From assembly GCA_026770705.1 (NCBI GenBank), contig JANJGN010000026.1, positions 24,428,001-24,492,000 on the forward strand: a stretch of DNA of 64,000 nucleotides, written 5' to 3'. Origin of the DNA: Isurus oxyrinchus (Eukaryota). The notes under the pieces were generated by a model. It ran no database searches. It worked only from the letters and a program-made list of their open reading frames with translations, and was not told the DNA's origin. A program made the position numbers and the translations under genes. Positions 1 to 51,695 of the stretch are shown piece by piece; position 1 is the stretch's first letter, and every line of letters begins with the position of its first letter.

Positions 1-2092
1 AGATCTGTTTAATCTGTCCATTTCATTCAAGCTGTTTGATTCTAATTCATCAATGGTCAATTTACTACAACGATAAGTCTATACCTTCTTTGAAATTAAA
101 TTAATATTCACTTCAAAATTCCTTTGACTTCCACTAACTCTCCCAGTCTATCTGCAATCTTGAAAACAAAGATTTAGTTTGCCTGAAAATGAGCAAATAA
201 ATATTACAGATTAAAGGCGATCTGATGTCTGTAAAAGTGACAGGGTAAGCAATACACAAACCAGGAAACATTCACATTGAAAATGATGACTCATGGATTT
301 GATAAAATTCTACAATTCAAGGTAATGAACACAATCATCAAGGTGAAGCACCTTATCGAGCTGAGCACAACTGAGTAAAGAAATGTATTATTTTCTAAAA
401 TCATTTTGGACACAATTAAAAATTCTTTCCGGCCATTGAGGTTTGTACTCACCATAACGACTCAATTGTAGGAGGTCATTATATTGAATGAATTATCAAT
501 TCTATTATGTTGGAAGTTAATTATCTTATTAGCTGATTTACATTCTATAATATGAACAATAGTTTTTGATAACTCAAAACATGTTTCTGCTTGATGCTTT
601 GTGAAATAATTGGGCTATAAAGAAATTAACATGATGCTTAGCCTATGTGAAACAATAAACATCAAGTTAATAGATGGAAAAATTTAGACATATATTACTT
701 TTACTTAAATCTGATCACATTTTAATAATTTAAAATGGACAATATTTGCTGCTACCCTCTTTTTTTTACCAAGAAACTTACAAACATTGCATGTTCCTGA
801 AGCTATTGATATATCATGAACTGTATCTCAGTAAGTATTTCACATGATGAATTTATGAGTAGAATATTTCAAGAATTTCCAAATTTGTTGGGTCACATCG
901 CACTAACTGTCGATGGGCTGTAGCATCAGCTGGTTGCCAAAGCAGGACTCAGATTTATATATGGTCGTCAATCGTAGCTATACTTTTAATTACAGAAGTA
1001 AATATAAAATATTGTCTGCGTTATTAAATACAGGCAACACTTGTACTGATCATAAACTGCAAAGGTTTGTATATATCGGACATTTGTGATCAGTAACGGT
1101 GCTGTCTCGATTTAGTAACTCAGACGATCTTTTATATTTATTCCTGCTGTTTACACAATTTCCGCGGATTAATTACTAAATACATTATTAATTTATAGAA
1201 GGGCCAAAGTTATCACTGTAAAACTTGGGAACAATTCATTCAGGTCATTTGCGACAGTGAAACATAATGGGCAAATGCAGTCGAGATTTTGTTGTTCAAT
1301 TTAACAATTGATAAGAATTAACTAAAAAGCTCGGACATGATCCGTTCTTTACCTATAAATCTATCCCGTGCACTTCCCAATTATTGGAGACAGGATATTG
1401 TTATTAAATTCGAAGCTAATGTTAATCTTCTGTATTTAACTTAGTCTGTTTGAAATTTAAGTTCTTACTTGACTATCTCTAGCCATATACAATCTGCACA
1501 TTGCTACAATTTAACTAAAATCATTATGAACAATCCTTTCACTTCCAGGGACGTGCACCTCTCATAAAACTGTTTAAAATTAGATTAGATGTAATTATTT
1601 CGCTATCCAACTACAAATGACGTTGAAGGAATAATATGGTTGCGACTGCACACAAATAAGATAATAACCAGATGCATGTATTGCCAAAGTGCAATGTAAA
1701 TCTTAAATTTAATTGGATGCAAACTTTCATTCATCTGTTTTAATCAGGGGCATACCAATTAATTCAAAACCACTTGTGAAACTGAACACTAGGGTGGAAT
1801 AAAAACATTAGGTTCTCATTGAAATAGTTTCAGGCATTATCAAAAAACATTTCCAATGTATAAACTTTTCCGGTCATGTTAATTGCGCTCAGTGCACAAC
1901 AGAATTGTGAAAGGTTACTAATTGTTCGTAGCATTCATGTAAAAGCATCTTTGGTTAATATTAATGGGAGTGTGACAGGCAAGGGTGCATTTTAAGAGAG
2001 CCAGTGCAGACTCGATGGGCCGAATGACCTCCATTTCACTGTAGGGATTCTGTGATCATGTAATATGGAGAGACATTAGCACATTGATAATT

Positions 2093-2100
2093 ATTTGCAT
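2093..2100. promoter_or_regulatory. Ig octamer (ATTTGCAT) in the presumed J-C intron
   Basis: Exact octamer 2.7 kb downstream of the J splice donor. The context is AT-rich, so a chance match is possible. Confidence 0.35.
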
Positions 2101-2814
2101 TACATTAATTTTACTCTCCCATTGGTAAACTTGTTAAAAATTTAAGTAGTTTATGATTGCAATTGCAAATTGTGTTCACAATGAGCGTCGGAAACCATGG
2201 CTTAGTTTAATCTACAATGACCACTTAAAATTTTTAAAAAAAGTGCATCAACATATCTTTAAAGTTTTATTTTTCATTTCTAAAGTCTGCTTGTTTTGGG
2301 CGCACAATCCAGCTTCAAGCAGTTTCAAGCGCATTTGCGTTCAATAAGAAAACGTGTAACCCCTTGATGTCACCGAGTTTAAACAACACAGAAATGCCAA
2401 ACAGTTTCACATTCTTGTGTTATTCAAATTGTCCTCAGTGGAAAAGCACCAAATCACATCATTGAGGGGCTGAAACCCGTTTCATGGAGAAGCAGCTTGG
2501 TTCTGCAAACACTTCCAACAGAATCAAATGTAATTGCAAGAAAATTTGAAGATAAAATACAGCCAACCCGCTCGTCACCAAAGGATTTGATTATTAACAT
2601 AAACAGAAATATGGAATAATAGTAACAGCACTGAGTAGACAGAACACATACAATAAATTAATACTTACATTTTTGGCATAATTTATTGACACTGAATTGT
2701 TGGTTATGTCACTACATTACAATAATTGTAATAAAAATTATAAAGTTATATCAATTTAAATCTGAAAAAAGCTTCAAATTTACTATTAGTGCTTTGCTAG
2801 ATTACATTAACCAT

Positions 2815-4320
2815 TATTGCTGAAAAAAGACATTTTTGTTGAAACTTTTCGTCTTGAACTCATCAGGACAATTCACAAGAAACTAAAAATGTCAAGGGAA
2901 ACAACATATATGAGAGCAGGCTGTTAATTTGTTGGCAAGTGGTCTCTGATTTTTAGAGGCATTGACGTGGATAATGCACCAGTTGATAATGACTGACAGT
3001 TAATTGCCAATCACTGTTTGAAATTTAAATCAGACATTGCACAGGGAATGAACCAGCGAATGGCTGTCACTTATTTTGTTTAGCTGAAACGGGGGAAATG
3101 TGTGTTAAACAATGCAGAGAATACCTGCAAAGAACAGGGCCCTGTGTATTAACATATGCAGCTCCCAGTACATATAAATGCACCACACTGTGAGCCCGAT
3201 TTGCCTTAAAATTCATTCATGGGATGTGGGCGTCGCTGGCCAGGCCAGCATTTATCACCCATCCCTAATTCAGAGGGCATTTAAGAATCTACAACATTGC
3301 TATGGTCTGGAGTCACACACTGGCCAGAAAACGGCAGATTTCCTTCCCTGAAGGATATTAGTGAACCAGATGGGTTTTTACAACAATGGATAATGACCAT
3401 TATTTCATGCTCATTATCAGACGTTTTAATTCCAGGTTGTTTTGAATTTAAATTCCTTCTCCTGAGTCCCTAAAGCAATACCCTGCGTCTCTGGATTACT
3501 AGTTCAGCGACAGTGCCACTACAACATCGCCTCCCCAGTCTTAAATTGGCTGTCAGTATTAATACACTGAGCATTATTTTTCAGATGTTGTCCAGTCGCA
3601 GAATCATATCTAATGTTGAACATGGCGTTTTGAGTTTTGCAAGCATGGGCTCGTTGGGTACGAACCATACCTTGTCCATTGTAGGAGGTACATGCTATTA
3701 GATACAATCCGCCAATCTCTGGACCGCACGGCCTACATTTTTTAGCATCACGCTGGCACTAAAATTCAAATACAATATTGCTCAATTTTATGATAAGCAG
3801 AAAGTCATTTTGGATTGACGGCAACATCCTGTTAGTGGCGAATACTACTCTGTTGCTACTGCAGAGTAACAGTGTGAAACAGTGAGGTTCACCTCTTGCT
3901 CAAATTTGTGAAATACTTTGCCCTTTCAGAGTAATCGAGGTAGACTGGGAACTTTTCAGGGCCGAAAATGATGGCCTTGGGCCCGTTCATGCGTTTGCCT
4001 GATGTACAGCGTGAAATGACCTGACCAAGGTAGCCATTATCCCGCAGGATGTCTTTGATACGCCCGATTTCAGCATTAGGCTTGCACAGTGAGCAAAAGT
4101 CTCGGGCCCGATTTACGAGTTTTCCGATAAGGCCATCGTGTGCATTGAACAGCGAAGGAAGGCTTGTGGTAGACCATGGTAGAGAACGTCTTAAAAGTTT
4201 TCTCAACCAGTGCGTCAAGGGAGTTCATTTTACTCCTCCATTTCAAAGGTGAATTTGAGCGCAGAATAGAACCCATTAAGGTGTGTAAGGAAATTATTAA
4301 AGTTTTTTGCACAACCTATG
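2815..4320 (-). mobile_element. Penelope-like element fragment (RT C-terminus + GIY-YIG), interrupted by a SINE
   Basis: ORF pieces GLIGKLVNRAR..CS...AEIGRIKDILRDNGY and SATGQHL; the 3' portion resembles 37560-38170 in the opposite orientation. Confidence 0.7.
3211..3530 (-). mobile_element. tRNA-derived SINE (family A)
   Basis: Shares gtgaaccagatggg, ctggattactagt and the gctggccaggccagcattta tail with copies at 8540-9105, 36770-37058 and 62285-62645. Confidence 0.8.
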
Positions 4321-4813
4321 AACATTCGTATTTATTTAATGAATATATGCCAATTTAAATACCACAAAGTCACATTAAAATATTGTTTTATCGCATTTAA
4401 CCGCTAAAGATTTTGTCCTATAATCATATTTAAAATATATTTCAATGCTTAATGTTTACGGTGGATGGTAAAACTTGACGCCACCAGATGACACCGAGAT
4501 TAAAATATGTAGAAATGTCAAACTTTTCAACAGACGTTTGGTATTTGACATCACCCAGCCACACAGTATCCTCAGCACATAAACACCAAATCACATCAAA
4601 CAGGGATTGAACCCCTGAGCATTTTCTTTTGTCGAGAAACAGATGAAGTTTTTAAACCCCTTTCCATCAGAATCACATGAAACATTCCAAAAGCAAATCC
4701 AATATAGAACCCAACAAGCCCGCCTTTCAGTCAACAAGTTAAATGTTAAAATAAACAAAAATATAAACAAAGAACCACGTGAAATAATTGATAAACAAAT
4801 ACATGGTTCTGAC

Positions 4814-5365
4814 CTGCAGTCACCGTCACCATGGTGCCTTGTCCCCAGTATTCGCCACCCCAGTATGCATTAGGCTGCCATGAACAGTAATAGATGGCGG
4901 TGTCTTCGGTCTTTAGGTTCATCATGTCCAAAGAGAGGATATTGTCTGATAAGTCTTTGGACGCAGTAAATCGATTCTGAATCCCTGGGGCATAGTAATT
5001 GTTGTATGAAGTATAGTAGTAAAGAAGCCACTCCAGCCTCTGTCCGGGAACCTGTCGGACCCAGTGCATGCTGTAGCTGCCAAGATTGAACGCGCTGGTT
5101 TTACAGGTCAGTCTCAGGGAGCCTCCGCGACGCTCGGTCTCTGCCTCAGGCTGAGAGAACACAACATCGGACTGGACACCTGTAAAAATATATGAAAAAC
5201 CCCGAGTATTAATCCTGGTGAAATGATTCCTGACCCTGTAACATTCCAGACAGAGACTAACACTGAGACGGTAACAGTGAGAGCCTTGGACAATAAAAAC
5301 TACTCACCGGATAAGAAAGTCAGCAACAAACTGAGGGAAATCTCCGGCCTCAACCTTCTGGTCAT
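4814..5365 (-). CDS. IGHV: Immunoglobulin heavy chain leader + joined V-D-J (shark IgM-type VH); exons 5365-5308 and 5179-4814
   Basis: Exon 1 reads ATG(5365) [20 protein letters not shown]|gtgagt; 128-bp intron ends tttttacag. Exon 2 reads [121 protein letters not shown], then a phase-1 donor G|gtcaga at 4813. Both Cys, the FR2 Trp and WGxG are present; no stops, and no RSS between V and J. Confidence 0.96.
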
Positions 5366-5440: not shown

Positions 5441-5454
5441 GGTATTTAAATACC
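5441..5454 (-). promoter_or_regulatory. TATA-like element of the VH promoter
   Basis: Palindromic ggTATTTAAATAcc about 80 bp upstream of the leader ATG. Confidence 0.6.
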
Positions 5455-5460
5455 CGGCAG

Positions 5461-5556
5461 AAGGGTTCTGTTGAAGGGTCATGAGGACTCGAAACGTCAA
5501 TTTTGTTCTTCTCCGCCGATTCTGCCAGAGTTTTTCCAGGTATTTCTGTTTTTGTT
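5461..5556 (+). mobile_element. Terminal fragment of a Penelope-like element abutting the VH TATA box
   Basis: Near-identical reverse complement of 39105-39206 (gagtcctcatgacccttcaacagaac; aaaacagaattacctggaaaaactc). Confidence 0.75.
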
Positions 5557-11689: not shown

Positions 11690-12530
11690 TGCATTAATAC
11701 CCGAGACAGGTATCGTAATTTAAATACAAACATGATCTAGTGCAGAACTGAGGCGGTGTCTACTGCAATACAGAGACAGGTCTCGATTAATATATACAGA
11801 GACATGTCAAAAGTATAATATAAACAGAAACAAGGCCTTGCTTAATAGAAGCAAAGACAGGGTCTAGGGTAACATAAACAAAAACAGGTCCAATGTAATA
11901 TAAAAAGAGGCAGAATCTGGTGTATTACAAACAGACAGGGTGCAGTTTAATATAAACAGGGACAGGTTCTAGTGTAAGATAAACAGAGACCAGGTCTACT
12001 GTGATATAAACAGAGTCAGCGTCTAGTGCAGTATAAAGAGAGACAGCAACTAGTGCAATATAAACAGAAACATAACGAGTATAATATAAATAGATACATG
12101 TCGAGTGTAATATGAACAGACACATGTCAAGTTTAATATAAACAGGTGTGCAAGGCCTAGTGTAATACAAACAGAGACCTAGTCCCGTGTCATATAAACA
12201 GAGAGAGTGTCTGGTGTAATATAAACAGAAACGGGGTCTATTGCAGTATAAACAGAAACATCTTGAGTGTAATGTAAACAGGGACAGAGCCTCATGTAGT
12301 ACAAACAGGGACAGAGTCTGGTGTAATGTAAACAGGGACAGCGTCCACTGTAATATAAACAGAGACAGCGTCTAGTGCATTATAAACAGAGAAATGTCGA
12401 GTATAATATAAACAGAGACATGCCGAGCGTAATATAAACGGAGACAGAGTCTAGTGTAATATAGACAGGGTCTGGTCTGTGTAATATAAAAAGGGACAGG
12501 GTCACGGTCGAGTGCAACATCGAGACCGGG
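11690..12530 (-). repeat. 27-bp satellite relic in reverse orientation
   Basis: Repeated taatataaacagagacagggtctagtg-like units. Confidence 0.8.
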
Positions 12531-13090
12531 TCTACTGTCCCATCAAACTTTCCAAGGATAGGTGCAGCATGGGGCTCGGCACCGAATTTAAAGCTCCCTC
12601 TACATTGCCACATTAAATACTCCCAGGGAAGGTACAGCACGGTGTTCGGTAGAGCGAAACTTCCTTGATACTGTCCTTGTGAAACACTCCCAGGGCAGGT
12701 ACAGCAAGGGCTAGATGCGGTTTGACACGGCCTAGCGTAAAGCAAAGACAGGGCCTACGGCTCCACACAACACTCCCAGGGCAGGAGTAGCATGGGGCTA
12801 CATTGATCATGTAAAGCTCCCTCTACATTGCCACATGAAAAAGTCCCAAGGCTTGTTTAGCACGGGTTAGATTCAGGGTGAAACTCCCTCTACACTGTCC
12901 CACCAGACAGTCCAAAGGCAGGGAAAGCACACATTAGATGCATGGGAAGGTCCTTCGACACGGCCACATCAAATCCCCGCTACTGGGCACAACACAGGTT
13001 GTATGCAGAGTAAAGTTTAATCTGCAGTTTCCTATCAAACTCCCAGGTCAGTGAATGCTCAAAACAGATTTAAAGCAAAGTTCCCTCTAT
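12530..13090 (+). repeat. About 65-70-bp tandem repeat (about 8 decayed units)
   Basis: Units like aaagctccctctacactgtcccatcaaacactcccagggcaggtacagcacgggttagat. Confidence 0.75.
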
Positions 13091-13929
13091 GGACTCCAGT
13101 CCATTTCATTAGATCAATTTAGTTTGAAGTTCATGAATTGGACTGAGAGAATGCATTAGCCATACGTGGTCTACATGTTGCGGGGTAAAGACAATGACCC
13201 ATAGAGAAGAGACAAAGCACAGAACCAGAGAGGAAAAAGTTACAGAGAGATAGAGACGATACAGGACATCTCTACAAACATATTTTCCGTGTCATTATAT
13301 TTCATGATAAGTGGGAATCTTTCTTAATTCTGAACATCGATATCGTCGTGACATAATTCTCATATCACTGACATTTAAAATTGCCCAAAAAACAATTGCG
13401 ACTGGAATCGGTTGATACATTTGCATATTTGACTCTATTTCTGTGCTGTGTTGGTGGGGAAATATTTGCTGTGTTTTTGTCTCTCCAGGATCTAATTTGG
13501 GACTTCTATTTCTGTGTTTATTTACAAATCCGCCTTACTGATCTCAATGAAGTGTCCATGGCAGCAAAACGAGATAAACAGAGGCACTTATTAATTGGTT
13601 TCTACTCAAAACAAAATTTATTTTGAGAATATTGACAGTTGGTACAAAATGAATAGAAAATTCTTCAACATTCATTGGAACAGATGTTATTTATTTCAAA
13701 CAAATATAAATACATTTAAATTAAGAATTTAATTCCAAAAGTTCCACTGTCACAATCAATAAAGAATCTTTGAACAAGCTGGGATTCCACTGAATGTCAA
13801 TTTGATTGAAGATTTAACCCATTTAATCTGGACAAATTAAAACAGCAGTCAGAGGAGTGACCTACAATCATATTAATCTCCGAGTTTTCAACATATCACA
13901 ATGAGCATTTTAAAATGTTAACATTGAGA

Positions 13930-14210
13930 AAGGCTTTGCATTTATACAACACTGCTCACGACCCCCAGGAGGTCCTAAAACCCTTAAAGCTTGTTGATGT
14001 AGCTTTGTTGAAGTTTAATCACTACTGTAATGTTGGAAATCCAAGCGGTGATTTGTGCACAGCAAGTCCCCACGAATAGAGCTGTGAAAAATGATCAGAT
14101 AATATGTGATTTCAGTTGACGAATGAATATTGGTCTAGAATAGAGGGCAGAACAATCCTGCTCTATAGAATGGTGCCAAGGGAGATTTTGCACCTGTTAT
14201 CGACCTGAAA
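13930..14210 (-). mobile_element. Deu-domain (SacSINE1-like) SINE fragment
   Basis: Reverse complement resembles the recalled Deu core (ttgctgtgcacaaat, ttcc.acattaca..agtga.ta.acttcaa); similar copies at 46175-46615 and 50130-50520. Confidence 0.55.
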
Positions 14211-14389
14211 GTTTGATCTGTTTCTCTCTCTACTGACGTCCACAGACCTGCTGAGTGTTTTTTTTTGTTTTGCTTTAGATTTCCGGACTCCACAGTATTT
14301 TGCAGCGCTTTAATTCTTTCTTGTGATATGGGCGTAATGAAGTAATTATTGCACTTTTCCATGTCTCACTTTATGATAGTCCAGACCAT

Positions 14390-17300
14390 ACTTTAATAAT
14401 CTCTTCACTACACCCTGCCTTAGTTTATATTAATATAGTCCCTTTGTCAGTAATCACTGCACTAGACTCTGTCTCAGATTATATTAATCTAGTCTCTGTA
14501 TCATTACTTACTGACCTGGACATGGTCTCAGTTTATTTTGATCTAGATCTTATATCAGTGATCAGTGCACTGTAAACTTTCTCAGTTTATATTGATATAG
14601 AGCCTGTATCAGTAATCTCTACACTGGACCTTGTTTCAGTTTATATTAAGCTAGTCTCTGTATCAGCAATAAAAGCAACATACCCTGCCCCAGTTTATTT
14701 AAATCTAGACCTTATTTCAGTAATCATTGCACCAGATCCCATCTCAGGTCATATTAATCTAATCCCTGTATCAGCATTCACTGCATTATGCCTTTCCCGA
14801 GTTCCTATTAATTTAGATCCTGCATCAGTAATCACTGCACTAGACCCTGTACAGGTTATATTAAGCTATACCTGTATCAGTAATCACTGCACTATGCCCT
14901 GCCTCAGTTTATATTAATCTAGACCATGTATAAGGAATCGTTGCACTCGATCATGCCTCAGTTCATATAAACCTATGCCATACATCAGTAATAACTGATT
15001 GGACACTCTCTCGGTTTATATTGATCTGAACCCTGTATCAGTAATCACTGCTCTGGACATGTTCTCATTTTATATTGATCCAGACTTTGTATTAGTAATC
15101 TCTGCAGTAGAGCCGGTCTCAGTTTATATTAATAAAGAGACTGCATTAGTAATCACTGCACTAGGCCATGCCGCAGTTTACATCTCATGACCCTGTATCA
15201 GTAATCACTGCACTTGGCCCTGTCTCAGTTTCTATTAATCTGGGCCCTCTATCGATAATCACAGTATCATGCTCTACCTCAGTGTTTATCAATCTTGGCC
15301 CTGTATAAGGAATCAGTGAACTAGACCCTGTCTCAATTAATATTGATCTAGACCCTGTATCAGTTATCTCTGCATGCAAGCCTGCCTCACTTTATATTTG
15401 CCTCGTCCCTGTATCATTAATTATGGCATGATAACCTGTCTCAGTTTATATTAACCTAGAACCTGTAACAATATTCACTGAACCATGCCCTGCCTCAGTT
15501 TATATCAATCTCGGCCCTGTAACAGTAATCACTGCATTGGACACTGTCTTAGTTACTATTAATCTAGACCATGTATCAGTAATCACTGCACTAGCCCGAG
15601 TCCCGGTTTATATTTACCTGGGCCCTGCATCAGTAACTACTGCACCATGGCCTATCTCATTTTATATTAGTCTAGTCCCTGTGTCACTAATTACAGCACT
15701 AGAACCTGTCTCAGTTTATATTAACCTAGAGCCTGTATCAGTATTCACTGAACTATGTCCTGCCTCAGTTTATATCAACCTAGACCCTGTATTAATAATC
15801 ACTGCACTGGACACTGTCTCAGTTTCTATTATCCCAGATCATGTATCAGTAGCCACTGCAATAGACACTGTCTCAGTTTACATTGATCTAGACCCTGTAT
15901 CAGTAATCACTGCAATGGACATTGTCTCAGTTTATATTGATCTCGACCCTGTATCAGTAATAACTGCACTTGGCCCTGTATCAGTTTCTATTAATCTAGA
16001 CACTGTATCATTAATCAGTGCATTAGACCCTGTCTCAGTTAATGTTGATCCAGACCCTGTATCAGTTATCTCTGTACTAAAGCCTATCTTAGTTTATATT
16101 AATTTGGTCCCTGTATCACTAATTACTGCACAAGAACCTATCTCAGTTTATATTGATCTAGACCCTACATCAGTAATCACTGCACTAGCCCATTTCCTAA
16201 TTTATATTTATCTGGGCCCTTAGCAGTTTCTATTAATCTAGATCCTGTATCAGCAATCATTGCATTAGCCCATGTCCTAGTTTATATTTATCTACCTGCC
16301 TAAGTTTACATATTCCTAGACCCAGTATCAGTAATCACTGCACTACACCCTGTCTCATTTTGTATTGATCTAGCCCTGTATCAGTCATCACTGCACTGGA
16401 CAATGTTTCAGTTTATATTAATCTAGGCCCTGTGTCTGTAATCACTGCACTAAGCCCTGTCTCAGTTTATATTAACCTAGAACCTGTAACAATATTCACT
16501 GAACCATGCCCTGCCTCAGTTTATATCAATCTCGGCCCTGTAACAGTAATCACTGCATTGGACACTGTCTTAGTTACTATTAATCTAGACCATGTATCAG
16601 TAATCACTGCACTAGCCCGAGTCCCGGTTTATATTTACCTGGGCCCTGCATCAGTAACTACTGCACCATGGCCTATCTCATTTTATATTAGTCTAGTCCC
16701 TGTGTCACTAATTACAGCACTAGAACCTGTCTCAGTTTATATTAACCTAGAGCCTGTATCAGTATTCACTGAACTATGTCCTGCCTCAGTTTATATCAAC
16801 CTAGACCCTGTATTAATAATCACTGCACTGGACACTGTCTCAGTTTCTATTATCCCAGATCATGTATCAGTAGCCACTGCAATAGACACTGTCTCAGTTT
16901 ACATTGATCTAGACCCTGTATCAGTAATCACTGCAATGGACATTGTCTCAGTTTATATTGATCTCGACCCTGTATCAGTAATAACTGCACTTGGCCCTGT
17001 ATCAGTTTCTATTAATCTAGACACTGTATCATTAATCAGTGCATTAGACCCTGTCTCAGTTAATGTTGATCCAGACCCTGTATCAGTTATCTCTGTACTA
17101 AAGCCTATCTTAATTTATATTAATTTGGTCCCTGTATCACTAATTACTGCACAAGAACCTATCTCAGTTTATATTGATCTAGACCCTACATCAGTAATCA
17201 CTGCACTAGCCCATTTCCTAATTTATATTTATCTGGGCCCTTAGCAGTTTCTATTAATCTAGATCCTGTATCAGCAATCATTGCATTAGCCCATGTCCTA

Positions 17301-20300
17301 GTTTATATTTATCTACCTGCCTAAGTTTACATATTCCTAGACCCAGTATCAGTAATCACTGCACTACACCCTGTCTCATTTTGTATTGATCTAGCCCTGT
17401 ATCAGTCATCACTGCACTGGACAATGTTTCAGTTTATATTAATCTAGGCCCTGTGTCTGTAATCACTGCACTAAGCCCTGTCTCAGTTTATATTAATCTA
17501 GAGCCGGTACCAGTAATCACTGTACTAGGCCCTGCCTCAGCTGATATCAGTCTAGACCCTCTATCAGTTATCACTGCATCTGGCCCTGTCTCGGTTCATA
17601 TTAATCTAGACTCTTACTCAGTAATCATTGGACTAGATACTGTCTCAGTTTATATTAGTCCAGACCCTCTATCAGTAATCAATGCACTAGACCCTCTCTC
17701 AGTTTGTATTAATCTAGAGCCTGTATTGGCAAACAATGCTCTATGCTCTTTCTCAGTTTATATCAATCTAGGCCCTATATTAGTAATCACTGCACTTGGC
17801 TCTCTCTTCGTTTATGTTAATCTAGACTTTGTATTAGTAATCATTGCATTAGACTGTGTCTCAGTTTATATAAATGTAGACCCTGTATCAGTAATCAATG
17901 CACTAGGTCCCGTCTCAGTTTATATTAATTTAGATTCTGTACCAGTAAACACTGCACTCGGCCCTGTATCAGTAATCACTGCACTAGACCCAGTCCTAGT
18001 TTGTATTTATACAGGCCCAGTATCAGTAATCATGGCACAATGCCCTGCCTCAGTTTTTCTAATCTAGACCCTGTATCACTGTTCTAGGCTCTGTATCAGT
18101 TCATATTAATCTAGAACTATATGAGTAATCTCTGCAATCTGCCATCCCTTAGTTTTTATAAATGTAGATCCTATATCAGTAACCGCTGCTCAGGACACTG
18201 TCTGGCTTCATATTAATCAAGACCCTGTGTCAGTAATCACTGCACTAGGCCCTATCTCAGTTTATATTAATCTAGAACCTGTATCAACGTTCACTGCACT
18301 CTGCTCTGCCTCAGTTTATATTGATGTAGGCCCTGTATCACTAATCACTGCAGTTGGCCCTGCCTCAGTTTATACTAGTCCACGCCCTGTATCAGTAATC
18401 ACTGCTCTATGCTCTGTCTCAGTATATATCAATCTACCCTCCATATTAGTAATCACTGCATTTGGCTCTCTCTCAGTTTATATTAATCTAGATACTGCAT
18501 CAGTTTATATTAATCTAGACCTGCTATCAGTAATCAGTGCACTTGGCCTTCTCTCATTTTTGTTAATATCGACCCTACATCAGTAACCAGTGTACTACAC
18601 CCTGCGTAAGTTTAAATTGATCCGGACCCTGTATTAGAAATCACTGAACGAGACCCTGTCTCTGTTTATATCAATCTGGACCCTGTATCAGTAATGACTA
18701 CACTAGACCATGTCTCAGTTCATATTAACCTATGCCATGAATCAGTTATAACTGCACTGGACACTGTCTCAGTTTATATTGACACAGACTCTGTATTAAT
18801 AATCACTGCACAGTAGAGCCTGTCTCAGTTTATATTAATGAATAGACTGCATTAGTAATCACCGCACTAGGCCCTGCCTCATTTTATGTCTCACGACCCT
18901 GTCAGTAATCACCGCACTTGGCCGTGTCTCAGTTTCTATTAATCTAGGCCCTCTATCTGTAATCACTGTATTATGCTCTACCTCAGCATGTATCAATATT
19001 GACCCTGTATAAGTAACAGTGAACTAGACCCTGTCTCAATTAATATTGATCTAGGCCCTGTATTAATTATCTCTGCACTCAAGCCTGTCTCACTTTACAT
19101 TAGTCTAGTCCCTGTATCACTAATTATGGCACTAGAACCTGTCTAAGTTTATATTAACCTAGAACCTGTATCAGTATTCACTGCACTAGACCCTGCCTCA
19201 GTTTATATCAACTTGGACCCTGTTACAGAAATCAGTGCACTTGGCCATGTCTCAGTTTCTAACAATCTAGAACCTGTTCGGTAATCACTGCATTGGACAC
19301 TGTCTCAGTTTATATTGATCTAGACCATATGTCAGTAATCACTGCATTAGCCCCTGTCCCAGTTTATATTTATCTGTGCCCTGCATCAGTAATTACTGCA
19401 CTAGGCCATGTCTTAGGTTACATTAATATAGACACTGTATCAGTATTCAGTGCACTAGACCCTACCTCAGTTATTGTTGATCCAGGCCCTGTGTCAGTTC
19501 TCTCTGCACTAGAGCCTGTCTCAGTTTTTATTAATCTAGTCCCAGTATCACTAATTACTGCACTAGAACCTATCTCCGTTTATATTGATCAAGACCATGA
19601 ATCAGTAATCATTGCACTTGGCCCTGTCTCAGTTTCTATTAATCTAGATCCTGTATCAGCAATCACTGCATTAGCCCATGCTCTAGTTTATATTTATCTG
19701 CCTGCCTAAGCTTATATATTCATAGAACCTGTATCAGTCATCACCGCACAAGATACTGCTTCAATTTATATTGATCTAGCCCCTGTATCAATAATCACTG
19801 CACTTTGCCCTGCCTCAGTTTATGTCAACCTAGACCCTGTAAAACTAATCACTGCACGAGGCCCTATTTCAGTTTATATTAATCTAGGCCCTGCATCACG
19901 AATAACTGCATGAGTCCCTGTATCAGCTTATATTAATCCAGACCTATATCTGTAATCACTGCACTCTGCCCTGCTTCAGTATTTATCAATCTAGACCCTG
20001 TGTCAGTAACCACTGCACTAGACCCTGTCTCAGTTTATATCAATCTAGACCCTGTACCAATAATTACTTCAGTAGTCTTTGTCTCACCTTATATTAATCC
20101 AGACCCTGTATCAGTAATCACTGCATTATACCCTAAATCAGTTTATATTGATCCAGACCCTGTATCAGTAATCATTGTAATGAACACTGTCACTGCACAA
20201 TGCCCTGCCTTAGCTTTTATCAATCTAGATCCTGTATTACTATTCACTGCACTAGGCCCGGTCTCAATTTATATTAATCTAGACCCTGTATCAGTCATCA

Positions 20301-21780
20301 CTGCACTTTGCCCTTCCTGACTTTATATCAACTTCGACCATGTATCAGTAATCAAAAGAGTTGGCCCTGTCTCAGTTCATATTAATCCAGACCCTTTCTC
20401 GGTAATCATTGCACTAGACACTGTCTCAGTTTATATTAGTCCAGGCTCTGTATCAGTAATGGTAGCACTAGAGAAAGCCTCAGTTTATATTAGTCCAGAC
20501 CCTGTATCAGTAATCAATGCACTAGACCCTCTTTCAGTTTCTATTAATCTTGAGTCTGTATCAGTAATCAATGCTCTATGCTCTGTCTCAGTTTATATCA
20601 ATCTAGGCCCTATTTTAGGAATCACTGCACTTGGCCCTCCTTTCGTTTATGTTAATCTAGACCCTGTATCAGTAATCACTGCAGTAGACCTTGTCTCAGT
20701 TTATATTAATGCAGACACTGTATCAGTAATCACTGCACTAGGCCCCCTTTCAATTTATGTTAACCTAGACCCTGTGCCAGTCAACACTGCACTGGGCCCT
20801 GTATCAGTAATCACTGCACTAGACCCAGTCCTAGCTTATATTTATTCAGGCCCTGTATCAGTAATCTCTGCACTATGCCCTGCCTCACTTTTTATCAATG
20901 TAGATATTGTATCAGTAACTGATGCACTGGACACGGTCTCATTTCAGATTAATCAAGACCCTGTATCAGTAATCACTGCACTAGGCCCTGTCTCAATTTA
21001 TATAAATCTAGAGCCTGTATCAGTGTTCACTGCACTTGGCCCTGCTTCAGTTTATATCAATGTAGGCTCTGTATCAGTAATCGCTGCAGTTGGCCCTGCC
21101 TCAGTTTATACTAGCCTAGACCCTGTATCAGTAATCACTGCTCTATGCTCTGTCTCAGTATATATCAATCTACCCCCTATATTAGCAACCACTACATTTG
21201 GTAGACCTGATATTGATAATCACTGCACTAGGCCCCGTCTCATTAATGTTCATCTAGACCCTGTTTAAGTAACCAGTGTACTACACCATGTGTCAGTTTA
21301 AATTGATCCACACCCTGTACCAGTGACCGCTGGAGTAGAACCGCTCTCGTTTTATATTAATCAATACCCAGTATCAGTAATCACTGCAGAAGGCTTTGTC
21401 TCAATTTATGTTAATCCAGACCGTTAATCAGCAATCACCACCCTAGATCCTATCTCAGTTCATATTGACATAGACCCTGATTCAGTAATCACTGCAATGG
21501 ACACGGTCTCAGCTTATATTTATCTACACCCTGTATCATTAATCACTGCCCTATCACTTGTGATGGTGTATATTCATCTCGGCCCTCTATCGGTAATCAC
21601 TGCACTATGCCCTGACTCAGTTTATATCAATCTAGACCCTGTATGAGTAATCACTGCGCTAGCCCCTGTCTTCGTTTATATTAATCTAAACCTTGTGTCA
21701 ATAAGCTCTGCACTAGGCCCAGATTCAGTTTATGATAATCTAGGCCTTGCATCAGTAAGCACTGCAACTGGCATTTTCTT
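14390..21780 (+). repeat. 7.4-kb minisatellite: 54-bp dimer of two 27-bp subunits, with higher-order duplications
   Basis: Alternating ctagaccctgtatcagtaatcactgca and ctagaccctgtctcagtttatattaat; resumes at about 23090-23710 after a Penelope insertion. Confidence 0.95.
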
Positions 21781-46641: not shown

Positions 46642-47527
46642 TTACCGTTTTAAACAACTGGTGAGGGTGGCGAATGGATATATCATCACTTTCCTCAGCT
46701 CCTCTCGGAACTTGCTCTGGGCCACCACGTAGATGAAGACGTTGTTGCAGGAGCTGAGTAACTGCAGCATGTTGGTTGTCTCTTGAAGGATGTAATCCGG
46801 GTCATTGAAATCCAGGCCCGTGAAGTAAGCCTCACCCGGAATCCGTATTTAGAGGAAATGTCCGACATAGGTGACCCACAGGAGGAGGAAGCTGAGGGAG
46901 ATGGCGAAGAGCAGGACAAAGGACCTCTTGCGGTTGATCATCTCCTGGTCTCCGTGACTCTCGGCGGCCCGGAGCTTCCTGCGGGCTCTGCTGGCCGCTA
47001 AGATGTGCCTTACGGTCAGGGCGTTAAGCAGCAGAATGGGGAGGAACGGGAGGAAAGGAGTTAAGATGTGGTCAAGCCAGTCATAGGCCTGCCAGGCGGT
47101 GGAGGAATAATAAGCTGCTATGATGTCACAGAACCAGGGCACCCCGTCCAAGGTGTACAAAGGCTGGTAGGTGAAATGGAAAGGGACGTTCTTGGTGCAG
47201 CTCAGGGCACTGACCAGTCCTATTTCCTTGGTGCAGTGCCTGGTCTTCAGGCCATGAGCGCAGATGGCCACAAAACGGTTGAAAGTGAAGGCGACCGTCA
47301 GCCAGATTGAGCCATCCCGAGTGGCAAAGACCAGCACGGCGCTGAGCTTGCATGCAGGTGTAGTGGACAGGACACTGAACCTGAAGTAAATTCCACCAAT
47401 CCGGTTGAGGATGACGGCGATGATTATGACCAGGAAATCGGCCACCGCTATCGCCAACAGGTATAGGTGATGCAACGGGAGAGTCCGCACCGTCCTCGGG
47501 CTAGTATTACAATCCCCAACAAGTTAG
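46642..47527 (-). pseudogene. GPR139/GPR142-like class A GPCR pseudogene, copy 1 (main exon only)
   Basis: Acceptor tctctcatag, then NLLGIVILARGRCGLSRCITY, a 1-nt frameshift, LLAIAVADFLV...SIWLTVAFTFNRFVAIC...PFLPFL.ILLLNALTVRHILAASRARR...GHFL, an in-frame TAA at 46849, then ...SSCNNVFIYVVAQSKFREEL...LKR*. Also a short in-frame deletion near TM4. Confidence 0.9.
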
Positions 47528-50520: not shown

Positions 50521-51695
50521 GCTCTGGTGGAGGAGAAACAACAGGAGCAAGTAATGGGAGTTGGCGCTTAAAAAGGGAGAAGCGAATGTTCAATTATTCT
50601 GGAACCGTTCAAAGCAACCATTGAGAGTGGAGAATGGACACATCAGCAGGTTCTTCAACTCTTCTCGGAACTTGGCCTGAGTCACTGCGTAAATGAAGAT
50701 GTTGGTGCAGGAACAAATCAGCTGCAGCATGTTGGTCGTCTCTTGAAGGATGTGCTGCGGATCATTGAAATCCAGGCCGGTGAAGTAGGCCTCACCTGTA
50801 ATCTGTACATAGAGGAAATGTCCGACATAGGTGACCCACAGGAGGAGGAAGCTGAGCGAGATGGCGGTTGTCCATCTCAGAATCCCCACGATTCTCGGCA
50901 CCCCAGAGTCTCCTGCGGGCTCTGCTGGCTGCTAGGATGTGCCTTACAGTCAGGGCATTAAGTAATAGAATCAGAAAGAAGGAGAGAAATGGCATTAAGA
51001 TGCGGTCCAGCCAGAGATAGGCTTGCCAGACAGTTAAGGTGTAGAAGGTGGCTTTGATGTCGCAGAACCAGGGCATCCCATCCAGGATGTACAAGGGCTG
51101 GCAGGTGAAGAAGAAGGGGATGTTCGTGATGCAACTTCAGGCACAGACCAGTCCTATAACCAGCGACACAGTTTTCTCGGTGCAGAATCTGGTCTTTAGG
51201 CTCTGACAGCAGATGGCCACAAAACGGTCGATGGTGAAGGCCACTGTCAGCCAGACTGAGCCATCCCGGATGGCATAGACCAGCAGGTTGCTGACCATGC
51301 ACCCCGGGGTGGTGGACAGGGTGGAAAGTAAATGCCACCAAACCGGCTGAGGATGACGGCGGCGATCATGACAAGGAAATCTGTTACCGCTTTTGCTTAC
51401 AGGTAGTAGGTGATGCGCCGGGAGAGTCCGCACTGCCCTCGGGATAGGATTATGATCGCCAGAAAACTGGCTGCAAGAGAGAGAAAAAGAGAGAGAAAAA
51501 AGTTAAAGATCTCACTCTAAATACCAGCCACTTGTTACGATCTTGTTAGGGATCAATAACATTTAAGATCTATATTTTTAATTAACATTTGGTCAGTTTT
51601 GCAGACACAGTCTTCAAGTGGATTTGCAATTCCATCTTTCAGGATGATGGGTCAAAGTGTTCTCATATCCAAAAGCTCAGGTCTGTAGAAACTGC

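Follow-up and report, generated by a model that had tools for sequence, protein, structure and literature searches.

Nurse shark IgM1gj is described as the main neonatal IgM, and the marks of the IgM1gj subclass are a mature chain without Cmu2 and high expression in neonates and in the epigonal organ. Fully and partly joined immunoglobulin heavy-chain (IgH) clusters are known in sharks and, in the available text of four papers, are ascribed to RAG activity in the germline (PMC2193153, PMC5192425, PMC4279169, PMC8355894); the partial joins DD, DJ and VDD form the spectrum that the available text of one of them describes for sharks (PMC2193153). Joined genes that have become pseudogenes are on record as well, namely two of six joined NS4 light-chain genes, and in the available text of the same paper "little evidence of TdT activity" is reported for light-chain joints and heavy-chain joints are considered hard to dissect (Lee et al., 2000; PMC2193156). 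The class of joined genes is already known, and the gene described here is in itself modest news. The genome that carries it contains unjoined, DD, DJ, VDD and fully joined clusters next to one another, a clean natural series that permits the dissection of heavy-chain joints.

The window, that is the whole stretch of 64,000 nucleotides that was analysed, corresponds to G000:C26:24428001-24492000 of Isurus oxyrinchus and, according to a genome search, lies at the edge of a long VH cluster array. It contains a joined V-D-J gene on the minus strand at window positions 5365-4814 (copy A). A second copy (copy B) lies 2.75 Mb away at C26:27178384-27178734, and its junction is identical letter for letter. 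In copy A a single exon of 366 nt (5179-4814) combines V, a 12-residue CDR3 and an 11-residue J end in one open frame and encodes an Ig V-set domain (Pfam V-set, E 2e-18). The named relatives found in protein searches are shark IgM heavy chains, and a structure search (PDB) returned generic VH matches only. The features are, in window coordinates:

5466..5555, no strand assigned: short interspersed-repeat piece, marking the point at which the conserved upstream promoter region is lost
5444..5452, minus strand: TATA-like element TATTTAAAT, common to other VH loci
5308..5365, minus strand: leader exon, 58 nt, 20 residues; the first ATG is in frame, and the second ATG of conventional clusters is TTG here
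5180..5307, minus strand: leader intron, 128 nt, GTGAGT..TTTTACAG (GT..AG)
4881..5179, minus strand: VH segment up to Tyr-Tyr-Cys-Ser, without RSS at its end
4867..4880, minus strand: 14 junction bases, an apparent N region or lost ancestral D1
4855..4866, minus strand: D2-derived stretch reading Tyr-Trp-Gly-Gly, 9 of 10 bases equal to a D2
4854, minus strand: possible P base, a suggested assignment and not a measured match
4814..4853, minus strand: JH-derived part, trimmed at its 5' end, up to the exon end
4808..4813, minus strand: J splice donor GTCAGA, GTAAG in other clusters; the change is common to copy B
1..4807, minus strand: window part of the J-C intron, which is 8.6 kb overall and runs outside the window to Cmu1

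This arrangement bears out what had been read from the letters alone, namely that V, a 12-residue CDR3 and J are fused in frame without RSS and that the leader intron and the TATA element are kept. Neither an RSS heptamer nor an RSS pattern is present in 5180-4500, and in the control set, the 28 next-best V loci of the genome, an RSS follows the V end directly in every case; 23 of these loci are fully split (V-D1-D2-J) and five are partly joined. The spacing from V to J is 33 nt, compared with 841-1258 nt in those V loci, and where an unjoined cluster has 1,252 bp from V to J the joined gene has 30 bp, with collinear homology on both sides. All 34 rows of other J donors that were compared read GTAAG(A/T), in contrast to the joined gene.

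Apart from the joined gene, the J-C intron holds about 1.8 kb of repeat-derived DNA (window ~2684-4463) that is absent from the unjoined clusters compared and that contains a frame of 111 amino acids without Pfam match. Upstream of V, at ~11900-21300, lie long arrays of degenerate short-period repeats, and homologues of these arrays are located next to other IgM clusters. Two apparently broken copies of rhodopsin-family GPCR pieces lie on the minus strand at 46849-47523 (Pfam 7tm_1, E 7e-13) and at 50590-51502, the tested piece of the latter giving no match.

The nine of ten D2 bases in the joint are equalled by 7 of 500 shuffles. For the 14 bases that follow V, comparison with 14 D1 variants in both orientations gave a best match of 5 bases, which 380 and 377 of 500 shuffles equal; among these 14 D1 variants there is no D1 or inverted D match better than shuffles. 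The nearest unjoined V among the fetched V loci stands at 87%, and the direct unjoined ancestor is not among them. The trimming and the D2 remnant fit V(D)J-type processing, and the 14 bases, which have no D match in a set of loci from which the ancestor is absent, may be N additions, or else a lost ancestral D1 plus later change.

Partly joined clusters number six. The VDD-J cluster of the IgM type on C242 (G000:C242:62928-63272; L041, L108) has no obvious N bases, a Cmu1 acceptor reading TG and a 21-bp deletion in Cmu2. D1 and D2 are joined (DD) at C26 27.35 Mb (L058, with a possible 2-base P addition), 28.17 Mb (C26:28167476; L109) and 29.31 Mb (L056). D2 and J are joined (DJ) via short shared ends at 32.92 Mb (C26:32919373; L107, with a 2-bp leader deletion) and 38.82 Mb (L011-L013). 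By reading of the sequences, the six partial joins contain 0-2 extra bases, compared with 14 in the full join, and this difference bears on the question of TdT action in shark germ cells.

The junction 27-mer occurs twice in the 4.98-Gb assembly (reversed control, 0), and a general joined-VDJ pattern likewise finds only the same two loci. Copies A and B are located within collinear blocks of more than 50 kb, in which 4-9% of sites differ (mean about 6.5%). Two samples of a second organism, both from a single study, also yielded contigs that run across the junction. At the V-D joint, X6 contig 32 (472 nt, 12 substitutions) extends 59 letters to one side and more than 400 to the other; past the D-J joint it continues towards J for 30 letters, just below the 31-letter spanning threshold; X14 contig 14 (196 nt, 3 substitutions) comprises CDR3, J and intron and spans the D-J joint. 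At the 36 listed sites covered, X6 shares 13 letters with copy A and has another letter at 23, nearly always that of B, a pattern that fits neither copy and indicates a third haplotype. X1 and X3, two runs of a single sample that may be the source of the assembly, are not counted as independent; some pieces of this sample are identical to copy A, and others match copy B, whose letters account for 39 of 40 listed substitutions. Contig pieces 217-472 nt long agree with copy A without a single difference. These comparisons indicate that the joined gene is inherited and not somatic, because a B-cell rearrangement cannot duplicate together with its flanks and diverge as A and B have done.

The sequence-only reading had argued for joining at the DNA level in the germline rather than retroposition, and the locus agrees, since the leader intron, the 8.6-kb J-C intron and the intron-split C exons are all kept and the gene is collinear with an unjoined cluster. 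A case that would have overturned it was a somatic junction in the assembly; the identical junction is shared by two paralogues at about 6% divergence and recurs in two samples from another organism, which leaves a lymphocyte rearrangement caught in the assembly with an almost vanishing probability. Scarcely more credible is a route in which the VDJ was made in a B cell, with TdT additions, and its cDNA entered the germ line and replaced the V-J interval in place. The 14 apparently non-templated junction bases would suit such a route, as would the 10 of 28 stem changes in V that are adjacent pairs or triplets; however, adjacent changes are similar in control V loci (e.g., 17 of 32), every intron is retained, and divergence continues into the J-C intron, beyond the reach of a spliced cDNA. 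An imprint of hypermutation in V was considered and rejected, V being in this respect not distinct from the control V loci.

The sequence-only reading had proposed a search for C exons past position 1, and these were found 3.8-10.2 kb beyond the window start, comprising Cmu1-4, the secretory tail, TM1 and TM2. In coordinates of G000:C26 they are:

24424203-24423907, minus strand: Cmu1
24423698-24423390, minus strand: Cmu2, acceptor AT
24423034-24422726, minus strand: Cmu3
from 24421504, minus strand: Cmu4 and secretory tail, with a +1 frameshift
24418082-24417955, minus strand: TM1
24417816, minus strand: TM2

A published TM primer had no match with up to 4 mismatches, and the TM exons were located by translation instead. 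The features of the mu isotype are present but partly broken: four Cmu domains, a tail with its cysteine, and TM exons. Elsewhere in the genome, dozens of clusters on C38, C42, C49, C20, C100 and other contigs contain a V that is only distantly related (identity about 48%) together with a Cmu3 of mu-like type (85-91%), and these appear to be a second large IgM group. Divergent Cmu fragments (L095-L106) lie far from the main array at C26:5.87-6.04 Mb; considered as IgM1gj orthologues, they were rejected, being broken, with stops, and without V in the fetched stretches. A protein record labelled Aeromonas veronii (P0021) is 79% identical to shark Cmu4 and probably reflects host contamination of the record.

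Copy A has lost at least 1.2 kb upstream of the TATA element, a region with 84-89% conservation across all 28 of the other V loci compared as well as in copy B and C242, and for which there is no match in the 114 kb around copy A. Its homology to copy B and to the unjoined clusters ends at 5465, beside the short repeat piece; at the break point copy B has about 6.3 kb, and each of the four fetched regions contains 3-11 matches to the repeat piece. In the assembly sequence the Cmu2 acceptor of copy A reads AT in place of AG, the nearest alternative AGs being out of frame or without pyrimidine tract, and one extra base in a short T run near the start of Cmu4, at about G000:C26:24421460, shifts the frame. 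A 7-bp deletion lies beside the Cmu1 donor, the Cmu2 donor reads GTAAGA, and with all exons spliced the chain stops in Cmu4. Copy B has lost 11 bp from Cmu2 and 9 bp from Cmu3, and it carries a TM1 acceptor AA, a new Cys in CDR1 and a 1-bp leader deletion that makes the first ATG a short upstream frame. Cmu2 is disabled independently in both copies, by the acceptor in A and by the 11-bp deletion in B. The lesions of copy A are not routine assembly errors, because 27 of 30 conventional C regions are without such lesions (the 30 being the best of 116 matches to an intact Cmu3, haplotype duplicates included). Of the claim that the gene is intact, the open joined V-D-J exon stands, whereas the upstream promoter region is gone and the Cmu2 acceptor, the Cmu4 frame and the J donor are altered. 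In the assembly sequence, copy A does not have the promoter, splice sites and frame through C all intact, as a functional gene would, and the window copy is quite probably a pseudogene of the known germline-joined class.

The dN/dS ratio, proposed as a check in the sequence-only reading, was computed against the paralogue B and by branch. The branch of copy A is neutral-like (0.88, p 0.73 versus neutral) and that of copy B constrained (0.48, p 0.009; its C exons 0.43, p 0.006); the shared stem has 0.77 in the C exons. Between A and B, dN/dS is 1.44 for V (2 silent, 10 replacement) and 0.65 for all exons (p 0.06). Cmu4 of copy A has one synonymous to 11 replacement changes versus 115:85 in conventional clusters (p 0.0014), and in copy B Cmu3 (6:7) and Cmu4 (8:9) look constrained. 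Cmu2 is fast-evolving in conventional clusters too (0.77), and a Cmu2-specific relaxation in the joined copies was rejected as not distinct from the state there; the flags raised on A and B for the "Cmu2 donor" and for net length are end-alignment artefacts and may slightly shift the Cmu2 counts. Site differences between the copies amount to 6.4% in exons and 6.2% in non-coding DNA, and frameshifting exon indels number 3, compared with 9.6 expected from the intron rate (p 0.014). The stretch from CDR2 to J is near-identical between them (2 silent changes in about 220 nt), which also speaks against pure neutrality, although of three equally conserved stretches that were found two are non-coding. 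Because frameshifting indels are few and the C exons of copy B have a dN/dS of 0.43, selection seems to have acted for part of the time, and the best reading is a gene that would have been functional for a time and then decayed, further along in copy A. The open frame had been taken to suggest a working fixed-specificity, innate-like antibody. At the divergence of A and B, a V exon has about a 20% chance of staying open by neutral drift, and with the lesions in promoter, splicing and frame this claim is not supported for copy A.

The gene had also been called old and diverged on account of unusual residues. An old lineage is indicated, by the J-C intron; the residues do not carry it, since ETERRGG is private to copy A and a recent change there (copy B and most unjoined V loci have ETGRPGG), and YYCS occurs also in a V locus that keeps its RSS (L005). 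On the shared stem, departures from the conventional consensus affect 9 of 333 sites from leader to FR2, 21 of 141 in CDR2-FR3 and 56 of 201 in the first stretch of the J intron. Divergence of the J-C intron from three other clusters is 19-27%, compared with about 10-15% among those three in their main collinear blocks. This points to an old lineage in which gene conversion has homogenised the 5' part and the C exons; the J-C intron would date the cluster, and the joining event is bracketed only between that split and the duplication. In the history that we propose, V, D and J of an IgM cluster would have been joined in the germ line of an ancestor by RSS-directed deletion of RAG type, with RAG as the presumed agent. 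The joined cluster would have become fixed; a later duplication copied it along with more than 50 kb of flanking DNA. For a period the gene would have made an IgM of fixed CDR3 without rearrangement, gene conversion presumably keeping leader to FR2 and the C exons close to those of conventional clusters. The window copy would now be silent or non-functional, and decaying.

That the gene is intact, its lesions being assembly errors or a rare allele of one individual, is a very improbable alternative: the lesions are seen in the assembly alone, and the Cmu4 insertion sits in a short T run, but there are several unrelated lesions, one a multi-kb deletion, the Cmu4 site has neighbouring substitutions, the branch dN/dS is neutral and the exact contig matches to copy A speak against errors. 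A working, IgG-like antibody of fixed specificity, with Cmu1 spliced to Cmu3 to give a secreted chain of three C domains, and convergent with IgM1gj, is unlikely, although it accounts for the independent loss of Cmu2 from both copies. Skipping Cmu2 gives an open chain of 465 amino acids with the tail cysteine in copy B, and in copy A one of 456 amino acids if the in-frame AG 49 nt into Cmu4 serves as acceptor; copy B, with its TM1 acceptor AA and the apparent constraint on its Cmu3 and Cmu4, would be the most plausible source, or else copy A via the downstream acceptor. However, B keeps both Cmu2 splice sites, so that skipping is not forced, and has the leader deletion and the new CDR1 Cys; A is without the upstream promoter region and its Cmu4 would be shortened by 16 residues at its start, the +48 AG is present in conventional clusters too, and Cmu2 evolves fast in those as well. 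There is a small chance of an old joined IgM lineage, in at least two shark species and with a germ-cell junction of TdT type, that converged independently on the IgM1gj/IgG design through loss of Cmu2, with one copy still encoding, on skipping of Cmu2, an open chain of three C domains that is secreted only. A transcript without Cmu2, if there is one, would mean that an IgG-like shark antibody has arisen independently a second time; otherwise the locus would record how a ready-made antibody gene was born, was duplicated and died. It is very doubtful, finally, that the locus is a true IgM1gj orthologue with C exons that became homogenised, at a later time, with those of conventional clusters. 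A V-only tree (11 rows, none left out) places A, B and IgM1gj on one side of a branch (77/82, not significant), and the J-C intron shows the locus to be older than the other clusters compared. However, the CDR3 differs from that of IgM1gj (ARGSTGWALDY) in length, sequence and D reading frame, V identity to IgM1gj is 61-64% and lower than that of a conventional V (66%), and an IgM1gj clade on Cmu1+3+4 is rejected (p-AU 0.00022), although gene conversion could mask shared ancestry.

The reading that we prefer, a once functional and now decaying gene, can be set against the known systems. Word-limited protein searches returned no protein with the junction or CDR3, and literature searches, none by junction sequence and with thin coverage of subscription journals, returned no paper on the locus. 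V, D and J are fused, inherited and followed by C exons with introns of their own, as in germline-joined elasmobranch IgH clusters, and the likeness to such shark clusters that had been drawn earlier is fair. As far as the available text of the papers on germline-joined IgM clusters (VDJ, V-DD-J, VD-DJ) describes them, the cluster layout, the clean removal of RSS and the retention of introns are alike, and these clusters too live beside unjoined and partly joined ones; the present locus differs by its duplication after joining, its long apparent N region and a decay that is mapped exon by exon (PMC2193153, PMC5192425, PMC4279169). The joined NS4 light-chain genes of the nurse shark, in the available text, are alike in split-gene origin, trimming and possible P bases and differ in that their joints give little evidence of TdT, whereas the present joint has 14 bases without a D1 match. 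Conventional shark IgM (Triakis, P0004; nurse shark, P0007) has the same four Cmu exons, secretory tail and TM1/TM2, and an unjoined cluster of the same genome is 78-88% identical to it in the protein domains. In contrast to conventional shark IgM, somatic rearrangement is neither possible nor needed in the joined gene, which carries the promoter, Cmu2 and Cmu4 lesions. With IgM1gj (P0020) it shares a fully germline-joined VDJ on a mu-type constant region, Cmu2 being unusable in both copies here. It differs in that the Cmu2 exon is still present and the C domains group with the IgM of their own genome. The parallel with IgM1gj that had been drawn from the letters does not extend to identity, given the different CDR3 and D frame and the rejected constant-domain clade, and these comparisons indicate a locus that is built like IgM1gj but is not a member of it.
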